Source of the DNA: a virus
Lineage: Duplodnaviria; Caudoviricetes
Strand: one strand, 5' to 3'
DNA: 64,000 nt
Virus record (IMG/VR): IMGVR_UViG_3300044898_000016
Span: 9,868 to 73,867 of that record
Shown here piece after piece: positions 15,221 through 49,347 of the stretch. Each line of letters begins with the position of its first letter. Position 1 is the stretch's first letter. The position numbers were made by a program, and so were the translations under genes. Under the pieces are notes generated by a model. The model was not told the DNA's origin, did not search any database, and saw only the letters and a list, made by a program, of their open reading frames with translations.

Positions 15221-15589
15221 ATGAGTGACGACGCAATAACAATCGAGGAAGGTAAGCCGCCCTCACTGGGATTTGAAAGCATCGGCCCGTTTAGTGTCTG
15301 GAAAATCACGGTAGACAGCTACCGAGTGCCGGGGCTCACGGGTCGCGTAGACGAGGAAACCGGAATGCTTCACCTATGCTTAGATGAGCGGTGGGGCATT
15401 GAAGTTCCCAGACAATACGGAACTCAGGTGTGTTGGTTAATCGCGAACGCGCTGGCAATCGGCGCTGGTTATTCGTGTTTTGGAGAGCATAGTTTGATGG
15501 GCGATCCAAACAAGTTCAAGTGTCGGGTAACCGAGATTGCTACAGTGCCTGAAATCGAAATGCCGGAAATTACAGATACTGCAAGTTGA
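15221..15589 (+). CDS. Hypothetical protein
   Basis: AGGA SD, 122 aa. Confidence 0.65.
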   Translation: MSDDAITIEEGKPPSLGFESIGPFSVWKITVDSYRVPGLTGRVDEETGMLHLCLDERWGIEVPRQYGTQVCWLIANALAIGAGYSCFGEHSLMGDPNKFKCRVTEIATVPEIEMPEITDTAS

Positions 15590-15673
15590 GGGCTTTAGTC
15601 CGAACTGTGAAAACGAATTCGCCGTTCCGACATAGCGAAAGGACAGCGTTCGACATCCTATTGTGAGGTAACT

Positions 15674-16291
15674 ATGAGCAACGTACAACGTAATGTTTCC
15701 AACGCCGCAACCGAATCAGAAATGCTGCGCCAAATAACGCGTGAGTCATCTGCTATTGAGCCGCCTAACCGCCGCGCCTTCCTACGTCTTGCTGGCACAG
15801 GAGCAGCGGGGCTGGCCCTTGGCGGTGTAATCGCCCCTATTGGCACTCCTGGCACGCCTACACCCGCCTGTAGCCCTAAATCCGTCAACGCAGAGGTTCA
15901 AGTTGCTGAGACTTTCCTAAAGGTCGTTGCTGTCGAACTGCCAAATCAACAGGCATTCATCACCAAGATTCTCAAAGTCACTGACGACTTTAATACGGAT
16001 TATCAACGCGGCGACTTCGCCAACGCCGGAACCTTGTTTGCAACATTGAGCGGGGACTTTACGCATCTACTCAATGATGTCGGGGTGAACATCAACGCAA
16101 AGGTGAAAATTGCGCTGGTGTTGATTGATGCCGCGATCGCGGGGATAGCTGGATTGCTCAAGTCTCAAATCCCAGCGGCAACCCAGGCTGGCTTAATGGC
16201 TACTCTGCCCGCTGCACAACAGTCTCAAGCGGCTGTGATTGAGGCGAGAGCAGCACATGCTGAGGCGCTCTTTACGGCGATTAAGCAATAG
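15674..16291 (+). CDS. Putative Tat-exported (lipo)protein
   Basis: NRRAFLRLAGTGAAGLALGG twin-arginine signal, then TPAC (Cys as possible lipidation site), then amphipathic helices. Confidence 0.65.
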   Translation: MSNVQRNVSNAATESEMLRQITRESSAIEPPNRRAFLRLAGTGAAGLALGGVIAPIGTPGTPTPACSPKSVNAEVQVAETFLKVVAVELPNQQAFITKILKVTDDFNTDYQRGDFANAGTLFATLSGDFTHLLNDVGVNINAKVKIALVLIDAAIAGIAGLLKSQIPAATQAGLMATLPAAQQSQAAVIEARAAHAEALFTAIKQ

Positions 16292-17169: not shown

Positions 17170-17622
17170 ATGAGCGGAGAGATCGACCCGACTGCGAATG
17201 TGATCGCACTCAACGAGGCCGCAAACAAGCGGCAGGACGATTTGCGTCAGGCGGCAGAAAAGCTCACCGACTCCAAGATCGCAGATCTTGACAAGCGTAT
17301 TACAACCAGCGCGAATCATCAGCGAGAACTAGCGAAAGCTGAAGCTGCGCGACTAGACTCGATTAGAGCGGTAGACAGGGAAGAATTGGTTAAGACCGCG
17401 CGCGCCGTGGTTGATACGACAGAGGCTATACGCAAGCAACAAGAAGCCACGACTAGCGAGCAAAACAAGCGATTGCTGGCATTAGAGTTGGGACAGTCAG
17501 CATCGGGCGCGGGCACCGCAGGCGAAAAGAGCGGACGGCTATCACAGCAAGACTTGATCAAGTATGTGATCTATTTGATTTTGGCGGCAATTCTGATTGC
17601 AGGCTACTTGAAAAAAGGTTGA
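17170..17622 (+). CDS. Coiled-coil protein with C-terminal TM helix
   Basis: GAGG SD, long helix, YVIYLILAAILIAGYL-KK. Confidence 0.7.
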   Translation: MSGEIDPTANVIALNEAANKRQDDLRQAAEKLTDSKIADLDKRITTSANHQRELAKAEAARLDSIRAVDREELVKTARAVVDTTEAIRKQQEATTSEQNKRLLALELGQSASGAGTAGEKSGRLSQQDLIKYVIYLILAAILIAGYLKKG

Positions 17623-17753
17623 AAGAGGTGAGGCCACGCCCGAAAACGTGACCTCGACCGTCCATAGCCCGAGTTGGAGGGCAATACTGAAACAAGGAAA
17701 GATGTCGAGGATCGCAACCCTTCAATGAACGCTGATTTTGTAAGATTGTTCGC

Positions 17754-18143
17754 ATGAGTCATCCAGCAACCAATGTACGACTTATTCGCAGCATGCCAAA
17801 AATTGACGCCTCAAAAGGCTTGCTTAGTTTCCTGCAACGCCATTTTTCGCCACAATCGGAGGTGCAGATGGTAGCAGCCTCGCAATCGAAGGGGATCTTT
17901 CTTCCCTACCCACTGCTCGGAATCGTAATGACAATCGGGATTGTGGCCCTAAGCGGCATCATCGCGCTGGAGGTCCAAGTGTCAAACTTGAGCACTCAGA
18001 TTCTTTTGAGAGATGCAGACCAACGAGCGGCCAATCAGATTTCATCCGACAAGCTTTCAACGCTTGAGGTCTATCTACACAATGACCGAGAGCGAATAAT
18101 CAAGCTTGAGGCTGAGAAGGAAGTAATAGACAGAAAGAGGTAG
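17754..18143 (+). CDS. TM + coiled-coil membrane protein
   Basis: LLGIVMTIGIVALSGIIAL followed by heptads. Confidence 0.65.
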   Translation: MSHPATNVRLIRSMPKIDASKGLLSFLQRHFSPQSEVQMVAASQSKGIFLPYPLLGIVMTIGIVALSGIIALEVQVSNLSTQILLRDADQRAANQISSDKLSTLEVYLHNDRERIIKLEAEKEVIDRKR

Positions 18144-18148
18144 ATACG

Positions 18149-18400
18149 ATGCCCGACCCCGAACCGCAGCCTTGCCCCGCCTGTGACACGAAAATCATCC
18201 TAAATGGCGACGTGACGGCCCGCGTTCTCGATTCGATCTGTGAGCGTATTGATAAGTTTGTCGCCGATGGCCACAAGTTCCCTGACGCGCTAAAACTTGT
18301 AAACATGGCAAACAAGCTAGAGGATGATGCCTTTGCTTTCGCCAAGGAAGTAATGAAGCAGATCGGGTTTCAAGGGCCGTGGCCAAAGAGCATGAGTTAG
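18149..18400 (+). CDS. Hypothetical protein whose C-terminus is duplicated beyond the adjacent HNH gene
   Basis: GAGG SD; ends NKLEDDAFAFAKEVMKQIGFQGPWPKSMS*. The stop overlaps the HNH stop (TTAG). Confidence 0.7.
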   Translation: MPDPEPQPCPACDTKIILNGDVTARVLDSICERIDKFVADGHKFPDALKLVNMANKLEDDAFAFAKEVMKQIGFQGPWPKSMS

Positions 18401-19011
18401 AACGGCGTGGTCATCGTGCGCTCAATAGTCCATCCGCGCCGAAGTCGAGACGAGAGAGAATGAGAGTTGACGCCCATCTCGACCGCCCAATCATGAACTA
18501 CTTGAGTCTTACCGTTCCATGTAATTGAAATGTTTCGTCGTGTGTTTCTGGTTTGTATATCATTCGTGGCCCAGACGCAGTTGCTCTTTGAATAGCCCAG
18601 ATTGTTGTTTGTGCGTTCGAGGGAATGCCGATTAGAAGGGCGCAGGCCCATGTCGGCAAAGAATCCCTCGAAGGACTGCCATTTATCGCAAACGAGAATG
18701 CCGCGCTCGCCATAATCCGCATAGCTGGGATTGTTCGGGTTGCCGCATCTTTGGATCATGTGAGCCCATGCGGTGTATTCAGGCGTAAAGCTCATGCCGT
18801 GTCGCTTGCGGTTGTCGCTCTTTGTACCGCACTTGCCACAGGAAATGCTCGTACCATTTCGCAGGGTTGCGCCGCTCACGGTCTTTACGGTTCCGCACTG
18901 GCAGCGACAGTTCCAGTAGCCAACCTTGGAATTGCCTTTGTAAACCGAGTGCGAAAAATTAATAACGCACCAGCGCCCATACTCTTTGTTCGTCAGGTCA
19001 ATGCGTGCCAT
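18397..19011 (-). CDS. Free-standing HNH homing endonuclease (antisense, predicted leaderless)
   Basis: WNCRCQCG...SCGKC, HGMSFTPEY..W..MIQRC, YGERGILVCDKW, SLERTNNNLGYSKSNCVWA; TGTTATACT ends 7 nt upstream of the ATG. Confidence 0.9.
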   Translation of the reverse strand: MARIDLTNKEYGRWCVINFSHSVYKGNSKVGYWNCRCQCGTVKTVSGATLRNGTSISCGKCGTKSDNRKRHGMSFTPEYTAWAHMIQRCGNPNNPSYADYGERGILVCDKWQSFEGFFADMGLRPSNRHSLERTNNNLGYSKSNCVWATNDIQTRNTRRNISITWNGKTQVVHDWAVEMGVNSHSLSSRLRRGWTIERTMTTPF

Positions 19012-19086
19012 ATATTGAAGTATAACACAAGCGGCTAGAAACAGATAGTTATTTTAATTCCTGGTATTTCAAAGGAGTTACTTCTA

Positions 19087-19176
19087 AACAAGATGGAAGA
19101 CGAAGCGTGCCAAGTTCAAAAGATGATCCTCAAAGGGATTCATTACGACGGGCCAACGGGTAAGATGCTGGTTTAG
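19087..19176 (+). pseudogene. Orphaned C-terminal relic of the 18149..18400 gene
   Basis: NKMEDEACQVQKMILKGIHYDGPTGKMLV*; 11/29 identical, ungapped, with the stop at the same aligned position. Confidence 0.75.
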
Positions 19177-19190
19177 TAAACGGACACACA

Positions 19191-19760
19191 ATGATTTCAC
19201 TAGCCCCACGCAGGGCGCGCAAGTTCGCGGCTAAGTTGGTTTCAAACGGCTTCAATGCCGGGCAAGCCGTAATTGACTGTGGATTGACCAAGAACCGCAA
19301 TTCTGCGTATGTAACCGGCCACCGACTGCTAAAACATGCTAAGGTTAAGGAAGCAATCGAGCAACACCTTATGTCTGCCAAAATCTCTGCCGATGAAATC
19401 CTCGAAGAACTCTCCGTGATGGCTCGCGCTCCGGTTGAGAAAGTATCTGAAGCCGGAAAGTTAAAAGCCTTGGAACTTTCAGGGAAAGCGCAGAGACTCT
19501 TTGTTGATAAGGTTGAATCCACCGACACAACTGAACGCGATGCAACTGTTATAGCGATAACCGATTCGATTGACCGTGCGGCGCAGAGGTCTAATGTTTC
19601 TACCGACTTGGCAGCGATTCATCTTTTTAATCTACTTGATGAGTCTTCACCGGCCAGGGATTTAGCGCATTGGGGAAAGTATCGTGGAGTGATTGAGGCT
19701 GACTTAGCGGAAAAGGCCCACAAAACAGCGGAACCTGATGAAGTTGGCGGGGAGATGTAA
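19191..19760 (+). CDS. terS: Terminase small subunit
   Basis: RARKFAAKLVSNGFNAGQAVIDCG...GHRLLKHAKVKEAI...ADEILEEL...KLKALELSGK, the typical TerS HTH and oligomerisation pattern. Confidence 0.85.
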   Translation: MISLAPRRARKFAAKLVSNGFNAGQAVIDCGLTKNRNSAYVTGHRLLKHAKVKEAIEQHLMSAKISADEILEELSVMARAPVEKVSEAGKLKALELSGKAQRLFVDKVESTDTTERDATVIAITDSIDRAAQRSNVSTDLAAIHLFNLLDESSPARDLAHWGKYRGVIEADLAEKAHKTAEPDEVGGEM

Positions 19761-19765
19761 AAAAT

Positions 19766-19950
19766 TGAGCGACGAAATCTTTGACTACTTACTACGGACA
19801 ACCCCGCCTGACGAGCTAAAGCGTCAGTGGAAACAAGCGCAACGCGGAATGGGGTGGTTGCTCTGGCGAGACAAACATCCGAAGTGGGCGGGGTTTATTG
19901 ACGGAGCATGTTGGGCTGCGATGGCGCTGTTGCCGAGAGGAATTCACTAA
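19766..19950 (+). CDS. Hypothetical protein
   Basis: TTG start within ORF 19738..19950, abutting the next gene. Confidence 0.5.
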
Positions 19951-21270
19951 ATGGCAACCGATCCAACCGATCCACGCCTTCAGAAACTGCTCGACGCAAT
20001 GCGCAACTCTGTTGCGACCACCGATACATCTGTGCCGAGCAATCAGGTTGAGCAGCTAGCCCCCGCCACGCTCCCAATGGCCGGTGGACTGAGATTACCG
20101 GCACCGACTACTAATGATGGCACGGATGCACCCGCGTTACCGGATCGCGGGGCACCGCCTCCGGTTGCCCCTCATCCGCGTATTGGAGTGAGTTTCAAAG
20201 GGCTAACAGGTATCGATAAGTCTCTCGCCGATCTCGCTGTGAATAGAGAAGCCGCGCAGCAATTCCCATCGTCCAAGGTTGTAGATGGTGAGATATTGCC
20301 TCCTAAGATGCATCACGGATTAGGTGATCGTCTAAAATCCATCGGGCGTACAGCAGTCCTCGGTATGGGTGATATAGCGAGGAGCAATCCTAACGCCTCG
20401 ACGGGTCAATTGCTTGGCGCTGGTGCGGCTGGTGCAGCGACTGGCGGCGTCTCTCCGGTTACAGGTGATGCAATGCTACGCCGAGCACAGGTACAGCAGC
20501 AGGAGGGTGATGTAGGCCGTCAACTGGACATCGCCAAAGACAACGGACAGGTGAATGCGATTAACGCAGAGCCGGGGTTGAAAGCGGAAAAGATTCGCGT
20601 GGACCAGGAGATTGCTAATCAAAAAGCAGCACAAGAGGCAGCTACGGAATCTGATCGCACTGCTCGCGCGGATGCGGCGACTAAGGCCAGTGCATTACGT
20701 GACGCTGAACTTGCTCGTCACCACAAAGAGAATGAGCGACTCGGGGGAATTAGGGCCAATAAGATGCCCACCACTCGTGGCGAAGAAACACCTCAGCAAT
20801 ACCGTTCACGTCTCGGCCAATACCGTGCAGCAACCAAGGAACTCAACGATCTAACTGCACAAGAACAAGACGCAGCGCGACGTAAGGACGCCGCTTATGC
20901 TCGTGCGTCGTCGCTCAAGAATTGGATGAATAGTAAAACCAACGATGAACAGGGTAATCCAGTTTATGGAGCGGACGTAACCGCAGCAGAGGAAGCGGCG
21001 CGTGCGGCTGAGAATCGCTGGCAGAGTTATGCAGAGAAGTTGACGGGCGCAAAGGCTAAGTTGGTTCAGTATGGAGACGTGGACGAATCAGGGAATCCGA
21101 GCGAGCCGAAACAGGCTGCGCCGCAAACCGTTGGCCCGTCACCCGCACAACCTGAGACTCGCAAGGGTTCAATTACTAAAGCGCAACAGCAACTTTGGTT
21201 ATCTCATAATCCGGGTAAGTCACTTGACGATATGAAGGTGTTATATCCTAATGCGGTGATGGTGAATTGA
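19951..21270 (+). CDS. Probable internal virion / DNA-ejection protein
   Basis: Ala/Gln-rich helical protein with a Gly-rich hydrophobic segment (LLGAGAAGAATGG); lies next to the giant transglycosylase protein. Confidence 0.55.
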   Translation: MATDPTDPRLQKLLDAMRNSVATTDTSVPSNQVEQLAPATLPMAGGLRLPAPTTNDGTDAPALPDRGAPPPVAPHPRIGVSFKGLTGIDKSLADLAVNREAAQQFPSSKVVDGEILPPKMHHGLGDRLKSIGRTAVLGMGDIARSNPNASTGQLLGAGAAGAATGGVSPVTGDAMLRRAQVQQQEGDVGRQLDIAKDNGQVNAINAEPGLKAEKIRVDQEIANQKAAQEAATESDRTARADAATKASALRDAELARHHKENERLGGIRANKMPTTRGEETPQQYRSRLGQYRAATKELNDLTAQEQDAARRKDAAYARASSLKNWMNSKTNDEQGNPVYGADVTAAEEAARAAENRWQSYAEKLTGAKAKLVQYGDVDESGNPSEPKQAAPQTVGPSPAQPETRKGSITKAQQQLWLSHNPGKSLDDMKVLYPNAVMVN

Positions 21271-21512
21271 TGTTTCAAACATGGGAAGATAAGAAGCGAG
21301 AGACGTTTGATCGCGATGGCTCTGCGCTAGTTCTAAGGGTGGGAATGAAAACTGCTGTCCATATCAAGAATTTGTCCTACGAATGTAGTAGCGACCCGAA
21401 CCACTTTAATGAACGTATGTGGTCAGAAGGGCTAACCCAAATACTGGGCTACCATCTTCCGCGTTTGCAAGACGGCGAAACCTACAAGATGGTTATAGTA
21501 GATGCCCATTGA
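21267..21512 (+). CDS. Hypothetical protein (AT-richer insert between ejection-type genes)
   Basis: 81 aa, overlaps both neighbours; 23/60 GC in line 21361-21420. Confidence 0.55.
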   Translation: MMFQTWEDKKRETFDRDGSALVLRVGMKTAVHIKNLSYECSSDPNHFNERMWSEGLTQILGYHLPRLQDGETYKMVIVDAH

Positions 21513-24500
21513 CGGCAACGAAGATCCCTATTTCACTCCCGATCCTTCCCCTGCTCCACGGCGGGGTGTAACCAATAACTATGACGAGATAATTGACCGG
21601 CACGCAGCGCGTACAGGGCTGGATGCGAATCTGGTTCGTGCGGTGATCGGCCATGAATCCGGCGGCAATCGCGTAGCGGTATCGCCCAAGGGCGCGCGAG
21701 GGCTTGGTCAGTTGATGCCGGCGACGGCAGCGAGGTTTGGAGTGAAGGACGTTAACGATCCTGAGCAGAACATTCGTGGCGCTACTGACTATTTGAAGTT
21801 TTTGACCGACCGCTACAAGGGCGACACGGATAAGGTACTGGCGGGTTATAACGCGGGAGAAGGGAATGTTGATAAATACGGCGGCATCCCACCTTTCAAA
21901 GAGACTCAAAACTATGTTCCTGCGGTAAAAGCGCGATACGTTAAGCTCACAGGTCAGCAACCGCAATCGACTTCGCAAGACCCTTACTTTACGCCTGACA
22001 CAAAAGGGCAGAAGGCAGCGCAGCCAGCCACAACGGCAGACTCCTATTTCACTCCCGACGCTCAACCAGCTCAAGCGCTAAGCACAGGCAAAGGCGCGGT
22101 TCGGCCCGTCTCTGCTCCTGTACGTCGATTTGGTGGTGGACAAGTGAAACCGATGGCCCCTCGAAGTCTAACCACAAACGATGCTGCATGGCACTTCGGC
22201 ATGACGCCGGACGAGGCGCGAACGATGAGTCCAAAGGCTGCTCAGGTATTACAAGCAGCGGTTGCGGATGATGCGCGCAAGAAAGCGGCGGGACAGGCGA
22301 TCACCGCACCGCCCTTAGCCTATCAAAACCAGATGCGGGCGCAGGCCGGACTAAAACCCCTGCAATACAACATGCCGACGCAAACGGACGCACGAGCTCC
22401 CTACTTCAAGCCAGAGGTCGGTTCTCTCAATATAGACAGGCCGATTGTCGTCAGAGAACCACGTTCAGGTTTCACTACTAATCCCCAGAACGACGATCAG
22501 ATGAGACTGGCTATTCGCGCTCAAGTAGCAAAGGAAATGCGGCCCGACGATCAACGGTTACTTGACAGCGGAGAAGGACGTAGCGCGGAGATTGACGCAG
22601 AGACGAATCGAAGACTTGCCGAGATTAAATCAACGCAAGCTCGTGAGGCATCGCAGATACAGACAGGGCCAAGTGCTCAGGCTGCTCCCGACAGTACAGT
22701 TTCGGATCGACTGAAACAGATACTTGGAACTACCGTTCCTGCAATTGGATTAACTCAAGGGCTGAATCTGAATCAGCGTGACCAGCAACGGCTGAATGAC
22801 ATTATCGACAAGTACGCGCCGGGAGTTGCAGCACTGGATACGCCTGAAGGCATCAAAACTGACCTTCCGCGCGGCTTAATCCACGGTGCGACATTAGGAG
22901 CGGTTGGGCGACCTAAGCCGACTGATAGTAAGGAAGAGGTACTCCCCGGCATGACGCGGTTTGGATTTGGTGAGACGGCGGGTTCACTCGTTCCTCTCGC
23001 CGCAACGGAAGGGTTATTACCAGAGGGTCTAGCTCCAGCAGTGCGCACTGCTGCGACGTTCGGAGTGACGGGAGCAGGACGACAGGCCGTAAACGCCGCC
23101 GAAGGGCGTCCGGTTGACCTTAAAGCTCCATTAGTTGACGCTGCGCTTGGCTTGGTGATGGGTAGGTTATCTGGGGCTGATCCATCGATGCTGAGACGGG
23201 CAGCCGCTTACGTTGCGCCGGGATTGGCACTTGATATTGCACAGGGATCGAGCAAGGAAGACGCAGCACACAGAGCGTTGGTGAACCTAGGGTTTGCCGT
23301 TAGTGGAGGCGGGAAGGAATCGCCAGCCGAATCTGAAGCCGACCCACGCCCAGCCAGCATTGCTCCTGTAATTGCCGATGCTCGCGCTGAACGAGTGGCA
23401 GATGCAACACAAGGCGCACAACCGTTAGAAACAATTGATCCTAAACTGGCACGTACCGCGCTGGGAACGGCGCTAGCACAGAGGGGTGGAAATGAAGTTA
23501 ACGACACAGGAAGCCGAAGCGATGTTTTGGCGGAACCAGATGCAGTTGGCAGTATCAGAACGTCGTCCAATACCAGAGCAACACCCGAGGCAAGCGTGGT
23601 GGACTCGCCTGGATCCGCCAACCCAATCATCCGCCACTCCGATCCCCGAATCGACGGCGGCGAAGTCATTGGACGAACGGGAGACGGAAAGCTAAAGGTT
23701 CAAAATAACGAAGGCGGCGTTTCAGTAGTGCAAGATCCACGGCGACAGGGAAACCGTGAGGCCGCGATAGTACGAAGCCCGCCAATAGAACAAGCATCAG
23801 AACCCGCGCCCGCAGAACCTGCTAGTCAACCTGCTCTAGTCACACCAGAAGGGGGCGGATCGTCGCCCTCCACGCCTGAGATTGTGAAGCCGTGGGAAAT
23901 GACACGCTCTCAAATTGAGGATGAGTATCAGCGCAAGAAGGCTGAAGACGACAACTTGGAGGAGTCGATCTTAGGGCCAGAATTGGCGAAGCGATATGCG
24001 CGCCTTCAGCGTTCTGCGAATAGTTCTTATGACACCGAGAAGGCCAATCGCGCCAGCGATGAGATTGAGAAGATCGAAGCGTCATTGTCAGAACGTGATC
24101 GCAATCGTCTCTATGGCATTGGCGAAGAAGGGCCGCAGGTCGATGAACTGAAGGACTATCGGCAATCGCTTGGCAATCTGGACGATCACGATCCACGGTC
24201 ACTTGCCGAGAGTATGCGGTGGGCCGTGAGTCGCGTTGGGAGAGAAACCGATCCGGCGAAAATGACGCATGAGCAGCGCGTTGCCTACGGCACTCTGCGC
24301 GAGGCAGCACGGATCGCTTACGAGAACGGTTGGGATACGCAGGCTATTTCACGGGAAGCAGTGAAGGCAGCAGCGGGGCGATTTGCCGATCCTGAAGATG
24401 CTGCATTTATGCTTGATAGGTTCATCAAGAAAGACCCGCAGACGACTACGCCGCAACGAAAACAGATTGCTCAGGTCGCCTCGCCTTTAGTATCCGAAGA

Positions 24501-27500
24501 AGCGAAAGAGCCAATAGTACGAGTTGCTGAGGATCGTGATTTGTCTAAGTATCCGCTCACTCCCTATGAAAAGATTGCAGCGGAAATTACCGCTACTCTG
24601 CCTGCTCCCAAAGAAGGATATACGAGATTATACCGAGGTAAAGGGACTGGCAGGCTAAGTGGGCTAAGTAAACCTCGCACGGGCTATCCGGGTCAATGGT
24701 TTGATGTCAACCCAAAGGGTGCTGCTCTCTACGGAGTCACAAGAGAAGGCGAAATTAAATCTCTTAGTTATGTGGATATTCCAACCACCGAGATTAGTAA
24801 ATATCACGCTCTTGATATTGAGTTGCCAGTGGAAGAATTAAACAGAGGGGTCACGCCGGGGGAGTATGTTCTACCAAAAGAGATCGCGTCACAATCTAAG
24901 GAGATTAAGCTGAAAGGTGTCGATCCTGAAATAGTACGCGATCAAACTTTGAACCAAGGCTATATCTCCCCTACTCAGGAAGAAGCTAAATCTCCCCAAC
25001 CTAAAGAGGTCGTACCACTAGATAGGGCTGAACCTCAGATCGTACAGCCTGAGAGCGGGGCCAGTGAGCCGTATTTTACTCCCGAGAGGAATATCGATGG
25101 ACGAAATATCAACGCATCTGCCAATGCTAACGGTGCAACTGAAGGAACCACTGATAATTCACTGGCCTCCACGACCTCTGCCCGCAAAGCCCAAGTAGAT
25201 GCAGAGCGTGAGTCTCGTGGTGCGGAACCGCTACCTTGGAGTCCGAAAACTAAATCCGACGCTGAGCTTCTTGATTCCGCGAAACAAGCGAACGATTCCA
25301 ATCCCGATCAGCCGCGCAGGATAGTCCAAGAGGTATTAACTAAACCTCGCGCGCTTAGCGACAAGGAAACCGTTCAACTCGATCTCCATAAGCAGCAGTT
25401 AAAGAACGAGCACGCCGCGTTGCTTAATGAAATAGCCAAAACTTCCGATCCCGAGAAGCTAGCCACACAACGTGCTCAACTCGATTCAATTGAACGCGAT
25501 TTCGATGCGGTAGATCGTGCGTGGCGGGCGTCCGGCACTGAGAAGGGGCGCGGATTACGCTCTCAGCAGACCACTATTAACCAAGATTATGATCTTGTCT
25601 CAATGGTGACACGGTATAAGGCAGCGGTAGGCAAAGAGCCATCACCAGAGATTCGCACACAAATCGAAGGCTATCAGAAGCGTATTGCTGAACTGGAAGC
25701 GAACGCCACTAAAGCCACGAGCAAACGTGCGCTCGATGCCATTCAACGCGAAGTACGGGCGCAGGGGCGTGCTCGGACGCGCACGGTGTTGGATGCTGAG
25801 GCCGCAACGCTCAAACAAGGCATGGCAGCGGAGTTTGCGCGGCTTAAAACTGAACGCAGCAAAGGGCAATACACGTCGTTAGGTGGATTGGGTTCGCTTG
25901 ATCCTGAGGGAGTGATCACTAAACTCGCCCTCAAGTACGCACGTAATCGATTTGAGGCAGGGGTGAATACTGTCGAAGGGTTGACCGATGAAGTTCACTC
26001 GGCACTCAAAGATTTCGTGGACGTGAGTAAGCGTGACGTGGCGGCGATGATTTCAGGGTACGGACGGCAAGGAGTGGATAAGCGGAGCGAGTTGACGAAA
26101 CAACTATCCGCACTCAAGACCGATATGCGGCGCGAGTTGGCGGCTGCTGATGGCCCGAAACAGGGGCCGCGTAAGCCGTCCCCCGCTGGGCCACGCGAAA
26201 CGAAACAGATCATCCATCGTCGTTATGACAAGCAAATGGCCGAAGTTGTGCAGCAGATCGCTGCACTTGACGCTGGTACATACCAACCTAAACAACCACG
26301 CGGCGCGACAGTGTTAGACCGTGAAACTGAAGCGTCCAAGGTGGCCGTCGAACGCGCTAAGCAAGACTTTCAGATCAAACTTCGTAAGTGGCAGGATGAA
26401 CAGCGGAGTAGTTTTGACAAGGGACGCGATCTACTCACCAAAGTACGACGGTCAGTCGTACTGTCCAGTACGCAGGTGCTCGGCAAGCTCACTCGTGCAG
26501 CAGTTGAGCGCATGGCAGTGTCACCCGGAGAGGAGATGATCGGTGCGGCACTCAATCGCGTTCCCGGCATCAATCGCATCACTCGTCAAGCCCCCGTGGA
26601 GCACGGTAGTAGTCTCACTAACACGATCCGTATTGAAGCGAAAGTAGCGGCATCTGAGATTCGCGCACTCATGGATATTACTAATCCTAACGGTGAGATT
26701 CGCCAAGTGTTGCGCACGGGCCGCTCATCCAGTGACGTGAAACAAGGGGAAAAGAATTACGGGGAAGCGAGTCTTCTTGGCCTCTCGGGTCGCATCCACG
26801 CGGCACTAAAAACCGTTCCTCGTCTCGGTGGGGAGGTGCGTGGTATGGAGAAGTATTTAGAGTCAGTGAAACGTGATGACCCCACTGCCGACTTACACGA
26901 TCCTCGTACTATTGCACTCGCTGAAGGCGCGGGATACCTTGCGGGAAAGCGCCAAATCCTCATGCAGGACAATTCGGCTGCTGATTGGGTGAAAGAATCA
27001 GTCGCTAGTCTTAATCGCAAGGGCGTACCGGGGAAGGTCGCCGCTACTGCTACCGACATCGCCATGCCGATTAAGCGCGTGCCATTGAACTACGTCACAG
27101 AGTCGCTTAACTATGCTTTACCTGGGGCGCGGGCTGGATTAGGCATTGCTCGTGCGCTTAAGCAGGGTAATCTGATGAGCCTTGAGCCGGCAGAGGCGGA
27201 CGCAATAACCAGATCGCTAAAAAAGGCTGGTCCCGGTGCGGCGATGCTGCTGTGGGGGTATTTTAGCCCCCAAACTTTTGGCGGATATTACCATCCCGGT
27301 AAACGCGATGAGAGGGATCCGCAGTTTGGTGGAATGAAACTGTTTGGGCGTAACATCCCTCGGTTTCTGTCGCATAGTCCGCTGTTAGAAGCCGCGCAAA
27401 TCGGCGCAACGATTCGCCAGACTATTGACGGGCTACAAGAGTCAGGAGCGTCCAAAGGGAAGTTGAGCAACGCTACCGCAGGTATTGGACAAGCGGCCAA

Positions 27501-28209
27501 GGGACTAGGCGAGGAAGTACCGTTCCTCGAAGATCCGTATCGTGCGCTGCGAGCTATTCATGGTGAGGGTGGAGGGCTGGCGCGTTATGGTGGGGCGTTG
27601 GCGAGTAGTATTACCACACCGCCCGACGTGAAACGGCTGGCTGGCATCACCGATCCCGCAAAACCAACTACCACAGGTCAAAAGTTATGGCAATTCTCCG
27701 GCCTTACCCCAACGACTGCCATGCCCCGAAAGCCTGCTGGATTCGCCGACGAGATGCGCATGGGCATACCAGGATTACGTCAACAAGTAACGGCAAACAT
27801 TGCCAAGCAACGCACGGACGAAGTTGATAGATTGACATCTGCCGCGCGTAGAGGTCAAAACATCACTGCCGACGTGGATGCTGCGGTCAAGGCCAACATT
27901 CTCAAGCCGGGAGATGCTAAGACGATTGAATCAGCTGCGAAGCTGACCCCAACGCAATCACGATTCAAAAGCAAGGGGTTGCTTGATGCTATTACCGCAT
28001 ATGAAAACTACGACGCGAGCCGAAGATCGCAAGTGAAGGACATTCTTGCTGACAAGGCTACTGGCGTGGAGACGTTGCGGCTGGACGATCAGGGGGCTGC
28101 ACGCGACCGATTGCGTAAGCTCGGATTCACTCCCGGCATTCAAATCCCCAAGGCTCCTGAACGCCCGAAACGTCCACAAGCTAATCCCCGCGCGTGGGCG
28201 ACTCCGTAA
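21502..28209 (+). CDS. Giant internal virion / ejection protein with N-terminal soluble lytic transglycosylase and a central ART-like module (polyvalent protein)
   Basis: VRAVIGHESGG...GARGLGQLMPATA...VLAGYNAGEG...ETQNYV (SLT); RLYRG...GQWF...YVDIP...EYVLP (ART-like); long helical C-terminal half. Confidence 0.85.
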   Translation: MPIDGNEDPYFTPDPSPAPRRGVTNNYDEIIDRHAARTGLDANLVRAVIGHESGGNRVAVSPKGARGLGQLMPATAARFGVKDVNDPEQNIRGATDYLKFLTDRYKGDTDKVLAGYNAGEGNVDKYGGIPPFKETQNYVPAVKARYVKLTGQQPQSTSQDPYFTPDTKGQKAAQPATTADSYFTPDAQPAQALSTGKGAVRPVSAPVRRFGGGQVKPMAPRSLTTNDAAWHFGMTPDEARTMSPKAAQVLQAAVADDARKKAAGQAITAPPLAYQNQMRAQAGLKPLQYNMPTQTDARAPYFKPEVGSLNIDRPIVVREPRSGFTTNPQNDDQMRLAIRAQVAKEMRPDDQRLLDSGEGRSAEIDAETNRRLAEIKSTQAREASQIQTGPSAQAAPDSTVSDRLKQILGTTVPAIGLTQGLNLNQRDQQRLNDIIDKYAPGVAALDTPEGIKTDLPRGLIHGATLGAVGRPKPTDSKEEVLPGMTRFGFGETAGSLVPLAATEGLLPEGLAPAVRTAATFGVTGAGRQAVNAAEGRPVDLKAPLVDAALGLVMGRLSGADPSMLRRAAAYVAPGLALDIAQGSSKEDAAHRALVNLGFAVSGGGKESPAESEADPRPASIAPVIADARAERVADATQGAQPLETIDPKLARTALGTALAQRGGNEVNDTGSRSDVLAEPDAVGSIRTSSNTRATPEASVVDSPGSANPIIRHSDPRIDGGEVIGRTGDGKLKVQNNEGGVSVVQDPRRQGNREAAIVRSPPIEQASEPAPAEPASQPALVTPEGGGSSPSTPEIVKPWEMTRSQIEDEYQRKKAEDDNLEESILGPELAKRYARLQRSANSSYDTEKANRASDEIEKIEASLSERDRNRLYGIGEEGPQVDELKDYRQSLGNLDDHDPRSLAESMRWAVSRVGRETDPAKMTHEQRVAYGTLREAARIAYENGWDTQAISREAVKAAAGRFADPEDAAFMLDRFIKKDPQTTTPQRKQIAQVASPLVSEEAKEPIVRVAEDRDLSKYPLTPYEKIAAEITATLPAPKEGYTRLYRGKGTGRLSGLSKPRTGYPGQWFDVNPKGAALYGVTREGEIKSLSYVDIPTTEISKYHALDIELPVEELNRGVTPGEYVLPKEIASQSKEIKLKGVDPEIVRDQTLNQGYISPTQEEAKSPQPKEVVPLDRAEPQIVQPESGASEPYFTPERNIDGRNINASANANGATEGTTDNSLASTTSARKAQVDAERESRGAEPLPWSPKTKSDAELLDSAKQANDSNPDQPRRIVQEVLTKPRALSDKETVQLDLHKQQLKNEHAALLNEIAKTSDPEKLATQRAQLDSIERDFDAVDRAWRASGTEKGRGLRSQQTTINQDYDLVSMVTRYKAAVGKEPSPEIRTQIEGYQKRIAELEANATKATSKRALDAIQREVRAQGRARTRTVLDAEAATLKQGMAAEFARLKTERSKGQYTSLGGLGSLDPEGVITKLALKYARNRFEAGVNTVEGLTDEVHSALKDFVDVSKRDVAAMISGYGRQGVDKRSELTKQLSALKTDMRRELAAADGPKQGPRKPSPAGPRETKQIIHRRYDKQMAEVVQQIAALDAGTYQPKQPRGATVLDRETEASKVAVERAKQDFQIKLRKWQDEQRSSFDKGRDLLTKVRRSVVLSSTQVLGKLTRAAVERMAVSPGEEMIGAALNRVPGINRITRQAPVEHGSSLTNTIRIEAKVAASEIRALMDITNPNGEIRQVLRTGRSSSDVKQGEKNYGEASLLGLSGRIHAALKTVPRLGGEVRGMEKYLESVKRDDPTADLHDPRTIALAEGAGYLAGKRQILMQDNSAADWVKESVASLNRKGVPGKVAATATDIAMPIKRVPLNYVTESLNYALPGARAGLGIARALKQGNLMSLEPAEADAITRSLKKAGPGAAMLLWGYFSPQTFGGYYHPGKRDERDPQFGGMKLFGRNIPRFLSHSPLLEAAQIGATIRQTIDGLQESGASKGKLSNATAGIGQAAKGLGEEVPFLEDPYRALRAIHGEGGGLARYGGALASSITTPPDVKRLAGITDPAKPTTTGQKLWQFSGLTPTTAMPRKPAGFADEMRMGIPGLRQQVTANIAKQRTDEVDRLTSAARRGQNITADVDAAVKANILKPGDAKTIESAAKLTPTQSRFKSKGLLDAITAYENYDASRRSQVKDILADKATGVETLRLDDQGAARDRLRKLGFTPGIQIPKAPERPKRPQANPRAWATP

Positions 28210-28215
28210 TTCATC

Positions 28216-30267
28216 ATGCCCCTATCTGTATTTGAGGAAGAAGCTTTTAAGCTGTCGATTCATCCGGCGTTTCGACTCTCACCGGGCAGAGCGCTAGAGA
28301 GGCAAGGGTGGCAAAAGTGGCTACAAACTCTTGGCCCTAAAACCTTCGTTAAACCCTTCGCCTTTTTCCATGCTGAATTCTGGGATTGGCTATGGGATGC
28401 CCGCACACGCTTGCTCAATGGTGAAGTATTACCACCCGCCGAACTTGTCATGCTGCTCATTTGGTTTCGTGGGGGCGGCAAGTCATCTCACGTAGAGTGG
28501 GGGTGCATAGCAGAGGGAGCAAGAGCGCCAAAGGGGTTTATTGGTTATGTTTGCGAAACCGAAGCCCTCAGTCTCGGTCATATCCAGTCCATTCGCCGCC
28601 GTCTCGACTCCCCTGAAATAATCAAGCATTACCCCGGCATGGCAAGTCCTAAGCTCGACCGTCATGGACGCCAAGTAGCATGGAGACAGGATTATCTGTA
28701 CACCAAATCAGGCTGGGGAATTATTCCTATTGGCTTAGAAGAAGGTGTACGCGGCGGCAAGTTAGAGGATGTTCGGTTTACAACTCTCGTATTCGATGAC
28801 ATTGACAGTCGCACCGATTCCCCTGCCGCCCGTGAAAAGAAGCTTAAACGGATCGCGTTTGAAATCCTCCCCGCAGGGACAATGAACGCCGACACGATGG
28901 TGTGGTTCCCCCAGAACCTCATTGATGAAGATTCATGTCTCAATCAAATCTACACAGGCCGCGTAGATATCCTCTCTGAACGTCAAGTGTCAGGCCCGCA
29001 CCCTGCGTTTAGTGTATTGGAAATGATGCTGGACGAGTCCGCGGTAGGTCGTAAATGGTTTATTGCCAACGCCGTTCCAACATGGCCGGAAGTGGACATG
29101 AACGCGGCAAAAAAGTTCCTAGCCGATTCAGGCCGCGTAGCGTTCATGGCTGAGTATCAACATGACTTTGAAGCAGCCAGAGAAGGGCGAGTTTTACGCA
29201 ACTACAACGACGTGCTGATGGTGATCGACGAGGATGACTTTGCGCGAGTGTACGGGTCGATTACCGCACTAGACTCGTTTAATAAGTATTTTGGGCACGA
29301 CTGGTCGCGCACCAAGTCCGCTTACCATGCAAACGTAGGCGGAAAGCTCGCCATATCCAGTCAGAATTCCGCGCTACCGGGGAAGCTGATTTTATTTGAT
29401 TTGATGAGTTTCGAAGGCGGCACACAGGCGGACGACGTAGGCTTACGTTTCCTCGAATCTATCTCCCCAACCGTTCCCAATCGTGACATGACGTGGAAAC
29501 AATTAATCGAAGCGGCTCTATCCCGAAAAGGCATGGAACGGTTTATCAGTGATACTACTCGATTGATTGAAGCGCGGCGTAACGTGTTAGCTGATATCAT
29601 CCCCTCGCTGGTTGCCCCTGTGCTCACAGCTCGTCATTATGATCGGTTTGTTGGTAGTCACGATCAAAACAATGATGCGCTCCAGGTGTATCGTCGCGTG
29701 TTTGGCTTACCATTTCATCCCTGCAATCCCGGCGAGACTGGTGGGTTGGAATGGGCGGATCACTACATGCTAGTAGACAGGCAAACCCGTCACCCCTTTT
29801 TTGATGACGAGTGGTTGGGCAACGAATGGAGGTTAGGCTGTCCCGGCATGTTCATTCTCGTGAAGAACGGAAAAAAGAATTATCCAAAGAGTGCGACGCC
29901 TGACTTGTTACATGATTCCGACCTCTGCCGTTTCCAGTTTAGTAATTGGCGAATGCGGCCAACTCGCTTGACCGAAGCGGGCGCACTTGAACACGGACCA
30001 ATGAAAATGAACGACGACTTTGGGCAAATGCTGCAAATGATTCTATTTGGTAATCGCATCAACGCAGCGGCATTAAGCTATACTGAACAAGTGCGAAGCA
30101 TCATTCCCTCTAAGTACAATCCTGACAGATTAAAGACCGAATACTCACCTGAACTGGAAATCTCGATCAACTATCAAATGTCTCAAGCTAAGTCTCGTGT
30201 GCCGAAATCAGCGGTGGTTACTTTTGATGAATTTGGGGACCCCGTTACCGACCAGCAAGAAGATTAG
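28216..30267 (+). CDS. terL: Terminase large subunit
   Basis: Walker A WFRGGGKS, Walker B LVFDDID, FMAEYQ, nuclease YFGHDWS and NDDFG. Confidence 0.85.
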   Translation: MPLSVFEEEAFKLSIHPAFRLSPGRALERQGWQKWLQTLGPKTFVKPFAFFHAEFWDWLWDARTRLLNGEVLPPAELVMLLIWFRGGGKSSHVEWGCIAEGARAPKGFIGYVCETEALSLGHIQSIRRRLDSPEIIKHYPGMASPKLDRHGRQVAWRQDYLYTKSGWGIIPIGLEEGVRGGKLEDVRFTTLVFDDIDSRTDSPAAREKKLKRIAFEILPAGTMNADTMVWFPQNLIDEDSCLNQIYTGRVDILSERQVSGPHPAFSVLEMMLDESAVGRKWFIANAVPTWPEVDMNAAKKFLADSGRVAFMAEYQHDFEAAREGRVLRNYNDVLMVIDEDDFARVYGSITALDSFNKYFGHDWSRTKSAYHANVGGKLAISSQNSALPGKLILFDLMSFEGGTQADDVGLRFLESISPTVPNRDMTWKQLIEAALSRKGMERFISDTTRLIEARRNVLADIIPSLVAPVLTARHYDRFVGSHDQNNDALQVYRRVFGLPFHPCNPGETGGLEWADHYMLVDRQTRHPFFDDEWLGNEWRLGCPGMFILVKNGKKNYPKSATPDLLHDSDLCRFQFSNWRMRPTRLTEAGALEHGPMKMNDDFGQMLQMILFGNRINAAALSYTEQVRSIIPSKYNPDRLKTEYSPELEISINYQMSQAKSRVPKSAVVTFDEFGDPVTDQQED

Positions 30268-38353: not shown

Positions 38354-38382
38354 GGGGCGTCCGCTAAAACGCCCCATCTTTT
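38354..38382 (+). terminator. Intrinsic terminator after the major capsid gene
   Basis: GGGGCGT/ACGCCCC stem followed by ATCTTTT. Confidence 0.65.
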
Positions 38383-39061
38383 AATGTTCTTTGACAACTA
38401 AACCAATTGCTTGTTCAAGGGTCCAAAGTGTGGGCCTGCTTAGTCGGTCGTAAATCTTCGCCCGACTAACTCCGGTACGCTCAGACCATTCAGCTACCGA
38501 CAACGTCTCGCTATTAATCGTCACCATGCGATTGCTTCTGGTGTTGCGATTTTGCTCCGTGCGCGTAGCCCATCGGAAGTTATCCGGATGGTAGTCACCA
38601 TTCTTGTCCGGATAGCGATCAATGGAGTGAGTTTTTGAGGGCGGTATTCCCACGTCAGCACGGAAGGACTCGAAACTATGCCACCGTTCACATACAGCTA
38701 TGCCGCGACCGCCATAGTTATGGTACGAATCACATTTAGGGTTGTAGCATCGACGATGCATTTGTCGGAAGATCGCATAAAGCCTTGTCCCTGAAAGTCC
38801 GTGGATGAAATTCTGGCGAGGCTGCTCAGCGTTATAGCATCCGCAGGACTTGATTCTACTGTTAAGCAGTTGACTTGCTCTGACAATCCAAATAATGCCG
38901 CAGTCGCACTTACAGAGCCAGAACGCGCCTGCTTTTCTTTTCATGCCAAGGAATGCTAAAGGGGTGACGCGGGTAAATTTGACGCCGATAAGGTTGTTGA
39001 CCCGGTCAGGCGAAATTGGTTTACGAAGTTGCTTGAGAATTGTAAAGTTAGTTTCAGGCAT
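38381..39061 (-). CDS. Free-standing HNH homing endonuclease (antisense)
   Basis: WLCKCDCG...KSCGC, HGLSGTRLY, YGGRGIAVCERW, SIDRYPDKNGDYHPDNFRWA. Confidence 0.9.
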   Translation of the reverse strand: MPETNFTILKQLRKPISPDRVNNLIGVKFTRVTPLAFLGMKRKAGAFWLCKCDCGIIWIVRASQLLNSRIKSCGCYNAEQPRQNFIHGLSGTRLYAIFRQMHRRCYNPKCDSYHNYGGRGIAVCERWHSFESFRADVGIPPSKTHSIDRYPDKNGDYHPDNFRWATRTEQNRNTRSNRMVTINSETLSVAEWSERTGVSRAKIYDRLSRPTLWTLEQAIGLVVKEH

Positions 39062-47819: not shown

Positions 47820-47879
47820 ATGAATAAAAATATCATCGAACAATCTCTCGCTACGGCAAAGTCTCCCGTAGTGCTGTCA
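47820..47879 (+). pseudogene. Orphaned N-terminal relic of the PAPS-reductase-like gene
   Basis: MNKNIIEQSLATAKSPVVLS(S); NIIE..L....SP.VL.S is 10/18 identical to the 48676 gene N-terminus. Confidence 0.75.
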
Positions 47880-48593
47880 TCGCCTGCGCTGGTCGTAGAT
47901 GCGTCCTTGCTCGCGCTCTCGCTTTCTTACTTCTGGACGTTCCCTTCGTTTCCTTGCGGCAATCTTGGCTTTTTCTCTGCGGCGGAGTCGTTGTTCATCA
48001 GTAAGATTATGGTATCGAGCGCTTTCTATTTGCAGTTGACGCAGTTTCTTTTCTGGCGACATATTGAGCCGTCTTCGCTTACTGCCCCTTGCTTGCATCA
48101 TTCGGTGTCTAGTAGCCTCTGCGGAGTCCGGCGCGATAGTTTTAGACCTAGCGTCAGATCGCTCAATAGCGCATCGTCTACATGCTCGGCCATATCCATT
48201 TTGACGATAAGATTTATACGTATTCTCGGTAGAATACGGATGACCCTTCGGGCAATGAGTTTTTTTAATATTCATAGCCGCTGGCCCTACGCCACGCAGA
48301 ATGTTAACCCGCTGAGTAACCACTTCCAAGTGCCCAAAATTAACGCATCTTCGCACTCGGCAGAGATGGTCGCAGCACAACTCTTTAGGAACCAAACCGA
48401 CGAACAGTTCATAGCTAAGGCGATGGGCCATTCGAGCGCGGCCATTCCAAGTCATAACACCATAGCCCTCTGCGGCGGTCGATCCTTGCCACAACCAGCA
48501 TCCAGTTTCATGGTCTACCTTAATTTTCTCCAGAAAGCGCGCAAGTTGTACAAGTGTTTTTGGGAGTGTGGTATTCTTTGGGTTAGACATCAT
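47877..48593 (-). CDS. Free-standing HNH homing endonuclease (antisense)
   Basis: CWLWQG...GYG...AHRLSY...DHLCRVRRCVNFGHLEVV, then THCPKGHPY...CRRC zinc finger; AGAGGAGG SD. Confidence 0.9.
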   Translation of the reverse strand: MMSNPKNTTLPKTLVQLARFLEKIKVDHETGCWLWQGSTAAEGYGVMTWNGRARMAHRLSYELFVGLVPKELCCDHLCRVRRCVNFGHLEVVTQRVNILRGVGPAAMNIKKTHCPKGHPYSTENTYKSYRQNGYGRACRRCAIERSDARSKTIAPDSAEATRHRMMQARGSKRRRLNMSPEKKLRQLQIESARYHNLTDEQRLRRREKAKIAARKRRERPEVRKREREQGRIYDQRRR

Positions 48594-48619
48594 TGCCTCC
48601 TCTTAGGTAATGTTGTTTT

Positions 48620-48667
48620 GGTTGGCGAGAACTTAGAGGGTTCGCGCCAACCTTATTTATTATACCA
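48620..48667 (-). promoter_or_regulatory. Extended -10 promoter plus 5' leader hairpin for the HNH gene
   Basis: Minus strand TGGTATAAT (48667-48659); predicted +1 at 48652 is the first G of the GGTTGGCG/CGCCAACC hairpin. Confidence 0.65.
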
Positions 48668-48675
48668 AAAATCGC

Positions 48676-49347
48676 ATGAATCTAGTGAACAGTTTTAATA
48701 TCATTGAGGAGGCGTTGAGCCGGTCGGCTAGTCCGACTGTACTTTGCTCATTTCAAAAAGACTCAATGTTACTGCTTTGGATGGTGAGACAGATTAATCC
48801 AAATGTGCCTGTAGTCTGGTTTCACGATGCTCGGGACCCATTTGCCGAGAGTGTGATCATGGATTGGGACTTAACAGTATTCTCGTATCGACCCGCCGAC
48901 AGGTATCTCGTGCCGAGTGGGAATGGAATGATGTTAGTAGACGAGTACGCGATAGGCGCGGCCAGATTACCAACATTGAGAGACGTGGTAGAGGGTGAGC
49001 GGTGTGGATTAGAATCACTATCAGCCTCGCGCACGCCAAATTTCAACTACCCATTCGACATCACCTTTTTTGGCTTCAAGGCAGCGGACGCGACGGATCA
49101 TGAGATTACAAACCACGCAATACTGCCTCAACAATTCATTCTCGGCCATACCACGATGGTTGCGCCGTTGCACGAGTGGAGTAACAAGGACGTGTTGACC
49201 GCGATAGATGAACACGGCATCCCGTACCAGCCACGCGACGATTCGGTGACTATGTGCCAGCAATGTGCGAGTTCGTTAAGTCGCTGGAATGGTACGACGG
49301 CGTTATCAATCTTTCACAAACGATTTGGTTTCGAGCAAGTTCACTAA
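48676..49347 (+). CDS. PAPS-reductase / PP-loop superfamily protein with a degenerate P-loop
   Basis: VLCSFQKDSMLLLWMV (canonical SGGKDS), VVWFHD, FFGFKAAD, APLHEWSNKDVLTAIDEHGIPY. Confidence 0.7.
   Translation: MNLVNSFNIIEEALSRSASPTVLCSFQKDSMLLLWMVRQINPNVPVVWFHDARDPFAESVIMDWDLTVFSYRPADRYLVPSGNGMMLVDEYAIGAARLPTLRDVVEGERCGLESLSASRTPNFNYPFDITFFGFKAADATDHEITNHAILPQQFILGHTTMVAPLHEWSNKDVLTAIDEHGIPYQPRDDSVTMCQQCASSLSRWNGTTALSIFHKRFGFEQVH

Follow-up and report, generated by a model that had tools for sequence, protein, structure and literature searches.

A free-standing HNH endonuclease gene between an intact phage gene and the 3′ remnant of another allele class

We analyzed a 64-kb stretch of DNA (hereafter, the window) from a single-contig phage genome of 73,867 bp that carries phage genes throughout. 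No close relatives were found among GenBank phages, where the only matches of the region were short HNH similarities in Ralstonia phages. The locus described here lies directly upstream of terS and is composed of the following features, in which X denotes the resident gene and X′ a different allele class of the same family:

17754..18143, + strand: up129, encoding a membrane and coiled-coil protein of 129 aa; conserved on the left side of X/X′ genes in this phage group
18149..18400, + strand: X, the resident intact allele; 83 aa, with a CPxC head and a GPWPKSMS tail
18397..19011, − strand: free-standing HNH-type endonuclease gene; 204 aa, phrog_374 (E = 5e-58), convergent with X
19012..19080, no strand: AT-rich spacer (GC about 0.40), holding the upstream region of the HNH gene and the putative illegitimate junction
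19081..19176, + strand: relic; the last 31 codons and the stop codon of the putatively displaced X′ allele, GPTGKML tail class
19191..19760, + strand: terS; PF03592 (E = 9.4e-11), phrog_51 (E = 5e-17)
28216-30267: terL; phrog_38

An antisense HNH gene between the 83-aa gene and terS, with overlapping stop codons, had already been described in a sequence-only reading of this DNA, and all of these elements were present. The TTAG at 18397-18400 on the + strand holds the stop codons of both genes (TAG for X, TAA for the HNH gene), which overlap by 2 nt. The start of terS lies 15 nt past the stop codon of the relic, which keeps its native spacing to terS, and an AAAGGAG is located within the spacer at 19073-19079 on the + strand. 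A scan of positions 17600-19600 for promoters and terminators yielded nothing above shuffle expectation and no consensus promoter. Of 18 metagenome loci, 15 were found by tblastn to carry up129 (33–57% identity) immediately 5′ of their X or X′ gene; the protein itself has neither a Pfam nor a PHROG match.

Gene X had no match in the GenBank phage collection, in Pfam, in PHROG or in a BFVD fold search. Its AlphaFold2 model (pLDDT 91.4) contains helices at residues 12–39 and 47–71, and the protein is thus predicted to form a helical hairpin. All 32 close homologues of X (54–84% identity) carry tails of the GPWPKS type, and the same is true for homologues down to 26% identity. One protein of 230 aa, P0045, consists of a typical X head and helix at residues 1–67 and then continues as an unrelated protein from inside the tail-coding region; this switch may mark a further rearrangement breakpoint in that portion of the gene.

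Past the HNH gene, the same sequence-only reading had pointed out a stretch resembling the X tail, of the same length and with 11 identities. Indeed, the orphan frame at 19087-19176, which begins 75 bases past the HNH start codon on the + strand, can be aligned gap-free with the 29 C-terminal residues of X (11/29 identical), with its stop codon at the same distance. To put a value on this resemblance, a profile of the X family was built from the 32 homologues, with both the relic and the resident X protein excluded, and compared with the 2834 six-frame ORFs of the 73.9-kb genome. X itself was recovered with E = 1.5e-48 and the relic with E = 0.0014 (16.3 bits), versus E = 1.8 for the next ORF, in agreement with the earlier proposal that the orphan represents a genuine 3′ remnant of an X homologue. 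A tblastx comparison between the two flanks of the HNH gene gave E = 2e-4.

The likely source of this fragment emerged from a profile search of 1.84 billion representative proteins, which recovered the X′ class. Its members are full-length proteins of 72–87 aa with tails ending in GP(T/V)GK(M/L)L. Compared as protein, the level from which the age of the relic was also judged, the relic is identical at 27 of 31 positions (87%) to the end of the full-length, 85-aa X′ protein P0053, including two leucines that lie ahead of the point where the fragment had previously been thought to start. Identity to other X′ tails is 55–71%, versus 35–39% to the resident tail class. At the DNA level, 63 of 96 positions (66%) match the X′ tail of locus L056, versus 47 of 96 (49%) for the resident tail. 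The similarity to X′ begins sharply at 19081 (CTT CTA, encoding Leu-Leu), and no similarity to X′ genes was detected in the spacer left of this position. The frame of the relic is uninterrupted by stops or frameshifts and retains every residue of the conserved X′ columns (Asn, Glu, Tyr, Gly, Gly and Leu). With a separate allele class matching it at 87%, the relic is not a decayed copy of X's own tail, and a decayed duplicate was rejected as its origin. Judged from these protein alignments, the relic is a 3′ remnant of a P0053-like X′ allele, that is, of an allele class different from that of the resident gene.

The orphan frame might instead be an independent small gene of another family, or resemble the X tail by chance, and it does have an in-frame ATG and the AAAGGAG upstream. 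We regard this as barely credible, however, given the 27/31 identities to the C-terminal end of P0053 in an alignment anchored at the stop codon, the gap between the profile E-value of the relic and that of the next ORF, and the lack of any such small-protein family among the 1.84 billion representatives.

In the metagenome loci, X′ genes occupy the same place as X, directly after up129, and no HNH gene accompanies them in any readable locus. GPTGKML-like X′ genes with no endonuclease in the available flank were found at L056, L057, L060, L064 and L065. The sequence-only reading had anticipated that homologues free of the HNH gene would end in a relic-like tail directly upstream of terS, and both parts of this expectation were borne out: P0053 and about ten others end in ..GI.Y.GPTGKML, and at L065 and L058 (the latter with a variant GEVGKML tail) terS/terL follow directly downstream of the X′ gene. 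When P0053 was used to query the viral contig collection, the only matching contig was that of L003, which is described below.

How the relic relates to the resident gene had been explained by a swap of the terminus alone. The HNH cassette would have brought a new 29-codon C-terminus along with the endonuclease gene and recombined at an AAACAAG heptamer, so that codons 1–54 would be original and the relic would be the gene's original tail. The layout is exactly that of the WHO elements at the yeast aldolase gene FBA1, which comprise an intact resistant gene, a free-standing endonuclease and an orphan 3′ fragment (Coughlan et al. 2020, eLife; PMC7282813). In addition, the two tail copies are equal in length and begin with the same 7-mer. 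The linkage between heads and tails in the family nevertheless contradicts this view. In a set of about 90 family members, a head with 50% or more identity to that of the window is always followed by a tail that is 52–90% identical to the resident tail and 19–39% identical to the relic, whereas tails with 55% or more identity to the relic follow heads that share 24–35% identity with the window's head. Put the other way round, the window's head shares 51–84% identity with heads that bear resident-type tails, but only 24–35% with those bearing relic-type tails; in P0053, the head is 35% identical to the window's head and the tail 87% identical to the relic. None of the ∼90 members joins a resident-type head to a relic-type tail.

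The heptamer fares no better as a crossover site. It is present at both copies (18310-18316 and 19086-19092), as had been noted, but it is not a special 7-mer: it occurs 23 times in the window versus 9 expected, it encodes a conserved Asn-Lys, and the similarity to X′ starts 6 nt to its left. We therefore regard it as a conserved codon pair rather than a demonstrated crossover point. Since head type is linked to tail type, the resident X is one coherent allele and not a chimera, and as a coherent allele of the other class it implies that the whole X′ allele, not just its terminus, was displaced. Exchange of the C-terminus alone thus appears improbable.

The HNH protein shows the hallmarks of an HNH (beta-beta-alpha-metal) nuclease core: it matched, besides phrog_374 ('HNH endonuclease'), four more HNH PHROGs, and a His...Asn...Asn-Cys-x-Trp-Ala-Thr block is conserved across 25 relatives. 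Its AlphaFold2 model (pLDDT 91.5) shows an N-terminal beta-barrel-like domain, a central domain and a C-terminal helical domain, the last of which is possibly DNA-binding. For the central domain (residues 66–160), the best structural match was the HNH restriction enzyme PacI (3m7k_A), with a middling Z of 6.4 and an rmsd of 2.4 Å over 80 residues. No Pfam match was obtained for the protein, a sequence search of the PDB was empty, and Foldseek against the PDB gave no clear match. The gene has no obvious Shine–Dalgarno sequence. It is a separate ORF on the strand opposite to X, with no intron or intein around it; an intron of group I or another type was rejected, as no Rfam family (including group I and group II) matched positions 17600-19800 at E up to 1.

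Among relatives that are otherwise syntenic, the distribution of the HNH gene is sporadic. It stands behind X in the window and in L003/L063 and is missing from about 20 other X/X′ loci (L001, L002, L027-L029, L056-L062 and L064-L072). No close HNH-free relative of this phage was found in which the pre-insertion state and the left crossover would be visible. Upstream of 26 other HNH relatives, the GPTGKML motif is absent; as it occurs in the window and L003 only, the motif does not travel with the nuclease alone.

Since the gene adjoins terS in the window, its product could be thought to assist the terminase in packaging, like the HNH proteins of HK97-type cos phages, rather than to act as a homing endonuclease. 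We consider this very unlikely. The gene is antisense to terS, is missing from nearly all relatives with the same gene order, and in L003 does not lie beside a terminase gene; the conserved, co-oriented terS/terL partner of the HK97 gp74 type is therefore not what we see here. Furthermore, a paralogue with 40% identity is encoded elsewhere in the genome, and relatives occur in many unrelated contexts.

The only independent second genome in which X, the HNH gene and a relic occur together is L003, a 70-kb viral contig. Over 5.4 kb, it shows 100% identity to L063, which comes from a different data set. Its gene order is up129 (52% identical to that of the window), X (45%), a convergent HNH gene (55–60%) and an X′ remnant. 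The L003 X gene is intact and of a third head/tail type, ending in GPWPKCLS. The junction between X and the HNH gene lies at the stop codon of X, the same as in the window to within 1 nt, and this 1-nt difference makes the L003 HNH protein 9 residues longer. With the junction common to both genomes, the joining of X and the HNH gene is old and shared. The X′ remnant of L003 consists of 12 codons just past the HNH start, of which 11 are identical to the end of P0053. Homology between the window and L003 stops at the stop codon of the relic, with unrelated genes beyond it in L003, and the two spacers cannot be aligned. Both X′ remnants belong to the same P0053-like class, as expected for a site-specific enzyme.

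The preservation of the two remnants stands out against their surroundings. Third codon positions of up129, X and the HNH gene are saturated between the window and L003 (36–40% identical), whereas the last 13 codons of the relics are identical at 27 of 39 nt (binomial p about 2e-4), and the seven codons of GPTGKML differ by 4 synonymous changes and no others. With flanks saturated and the relic well kept, neutral drift since the split of the two lineages could not have given the relics of L003 and the window. The pattern fits relics that were both orphaned recently and separately from functional X′ genes, or that have been renewed by repeated homing. The difference in relic length (31 versus about 12 codons) means that two events, or a later deletion, must be assumed.

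Preservation could also mean that the relic is kept because it is useful, either as a right-hand homology arm or as a mini-ORF that couples translation to terS. Such a function would be compatible with displacement of X′ by the X-HNH unit. In its favor, the fragment shows no decay in either of the two lineages, even though silent sites of the flanking genes have reached saturation, and homology between the two genomes ends precisely at its stop codon. A role as a homology arm has been proposed for yeast elements (PMC7282813) and for phage elements (PMC10055350). The mini-ORF would have 27 codons, starting at the ATG at 19093, with AAAGGAG 13 nt upstream, and the ribosome-binding site of terS is weak. 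Against a function speak the unequal lengths, with 12 codons making a very short arm, the long 13-nt spacing between the Shine–Dalgarno sequence and the ATG, and the situation in L003, which has no equivalent start codon and whose downstream gene has a strong ribosome-binding site of its own. Two recent, independent orphanings would explain the same data, and we therefore treat a retained function as possible but doubtful.

Similar arrangements were found at two further sites with other genes. Among 27 loci with related HNH genes, L047 shows the same layout: at L047:2242-3194, a 98-aa Cys/His-rich gene unrelated to X is followed by an HNH gene on the sense strand (43% identical to that of the window) and a 29-residue copy of the gene's end. 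The two flank copies are 62% identical (E = 2e-11), and the second overlaps the last 15 HNH codons in another frame. A flank-duplication test across 29 HNH loci scored only in the window, in L047 and in some low-complexity, GC-rich artefacts. Within the window itself, a 5′ relic (ATG at 47820) is separated from an intact 223-aa gene (48676) by an antisense HNH gene of another type (47877-48593, 238 aa). This relic has a TAK.P..LSS pattern in common with the homologue P0104 that is absent from the resident gene, and by this comparison it looks like a remnant of another allele.

These sites also bear on the question of whether the endonuclease was involved at all. Ordinary illegitimate recombination between mosaic phages might have happened to fall inside X′, with the HNH gene as a bystander. 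The boundary between X and terS is a module boundary with varied downstream genes, and cleavage by the HNH protein is a prediction only, both of which would be consistent with such an accident. However, in each of the window, L003 and L047 the remnant directly adjoins an endonuclease gene, gene and relic are separated by an endonuclease gene at 47820-48698, and the two independent X′ remnants are both P0053-like, which is expected of a site-specific enzyme. A bystander role is thus unlikely in our view, if slightly less so than the swap of a terminus.

Taken together, we favor the explanation that a unit of X and the HNH gene displaced an X′ allele that formerly lay directly before terS and left its 3′ end behind, to which we assign a probability of roughly 65%. 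As to cleavage specificity, repair pathway and direction of transfer, we infer the following course. The HNH enzyme would cut X′-type alleles of co-infecting relatives near codons 50–55, while X would be too divergent from X′ to carry the target. The break would then be repaired from the genome carrying X and the HNH gene. On the left side, resection would have to pass the X′ head, which lacks homology, before reaching shared upstream DNA, and the head would thereby be replaced as a whole. On the right side, the X′ tail would survive by illegitimate joining, as in one-sided homing, or alternatively through pairing with an X′ fragment that already lay behind the HNH gene, according to the WHO model. 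The product would have the order X, HNH gene, X′ tail and the recipient's own downstream genes.

A more far-reaching version, which we put forward tentatively and hold to be rather doubtful, is that the three elements (X, HNH gene and X′ fragment) together act as a portable homing unit of the WHO type in phages. Such a unit would carry a complete immune allele, rather than only a re-coded end of a gene, and a short piece of the sensitive allele that serves as a right-hand landing pad. If true, the landing pad would permit entry into any X′ phage regardless of its downstream genes, and the fragment would be renewed with each jump.

Several known systems resemble this locus. Mobile endonuclease ORFs that carry a foreign gene terminus occur in fungal mitochondria, in Allomyces atp6 and in Glomus atp6, atp9 and cox2. 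As in the window, the gene end is duplicated there, with one functional copy and one relic; unlike in the window, exchange is limited to the terminus, and the ORF is either fused to the new terminus or transcribed together with it.

In the WHO elements, the fragment is that of the previous, sensitive allele and has been suggested to provide a second homologous region, with no intron or intein involved (PMC7282813). The order of gene, endonuclease and terminal fragment is likewise found in the window, L003 and L047, and the fragment in the window likewise comes from an allele other than the resident. [quoted passage not shown] Such discordant halves were not observed here: the resident head and tail belong to one subfamily, the GPWPKSMS class, and the whole 83-codon allele was apparently replaced. 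The enzymes differ as well, the WHO enzymes being LAGLIDADG/intein-derived proteins with a zinc finger that act in yeast meiosis (PMC7282813), whereas the window's nuclease is of the HNH type and antisense, and its cleavage activity is predicted.

Among phages, the HEG-islands contain small ORFs that are fragments of cargo genes beside free-standing endonucleases (Barth, Dunham and Seed 2023, NAR Genom Bioinform; PMC10448857, preprint PMC10055350). The preprint suggests that these fragments are recombination substrates for later homing; the islands it describes are those of ICP1-like and T4-like phages, where the cargo genes are essential and the nucleases belong mainly to T5orf172 and other families (PMC10055350). 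Both settings have a phage endonuclease at a boundary of genetic exchange, with a fragment of the neighbouring gene alongside. Our case differs in that it concerns an uncultured 74-kb phage, a phrog_374 nuclease and a small gene with no family match, and in that the allele class from which the fragment came has been identified.

For the free-standing T-even enzymes SegF, SegG and MobE, intron-less homing and marker exclusion have been described: an endonuclease gene lies beside a resistant allele, and its product cuts the sensitive allele of a co-infecting phage, with co-conversion of flanking markers (PMC2988022). The same review describes one-sided homing in T4 by illegitimate break repair, in which homology is present on one side only and repair ends at microhomologies (Parker, Belisle and Belfort 1999, via PMC2988022); these events were laboratory-made (PMC2988022). 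The classic T-even cases are described as clean allele replacements that leave no remnant, whereas a natural remnant marks the junction in the window.

The mechanism is thus not new, and similar marks have been described in yeast and in other phages, but the locus is a clear new example. The remnant would constitute a natural record of a homing-type event that names the displaced allele class (P0053-like X′), and it suggests a cut site at about codons 50–55 of X′. If our explanation is correct, a highly divergent allele linked to an endonuclease can replace a small gene in its entirety. Together with the site at 47820-48698 and with L047, the locus adds to the evidence that free-standing endonucleases shape the mosaic boundaries of phage genomes, and it yields a concrete candidate pair of enzyme and target.

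Other observations concern endonuclease genes in and around this gene neighborhood. At L026:2989-5759, a distant X homologue is followed by a classical HNH ORF on the sense strand (His-His...Asn-Cys-Asn) and then by terS-like and terL genes. With an HNH gene of a different family between X and terS, the region behind X appears to be an endonuclease hot spot. The window holds a second phrog_374 HNH gene, the 40% identical paralogue mentioned above, at 38381-39061 on the − strand (226 aa), between genes for 473-aa and 253-aa proteins; tblastx detected no duplicated flank within 700 nt of it. At 15473-15731 on the − strand, antisense to + strand ORFs, the HNH protein has two weak tblastn matches (E = 0.006), which could be a decayed endonuclease remnant or due to chance.

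The surroundings of terS vary as well. The only close terS homologue, at L005 (51% identical), has no X-like gene upstream. In the syntenic contig L002, X is followed by a gene for a 60-aa membrane protein and then by a 421-aa gene and a giant gene, with no terS at that position. In the window, terS and terL (19191-30267) are separated by a gap of ∼8.4 kb that contains a 439-aa gene and a 2235-aa gene, the product of the latter carrying a lytic-transglycosylase-like region.
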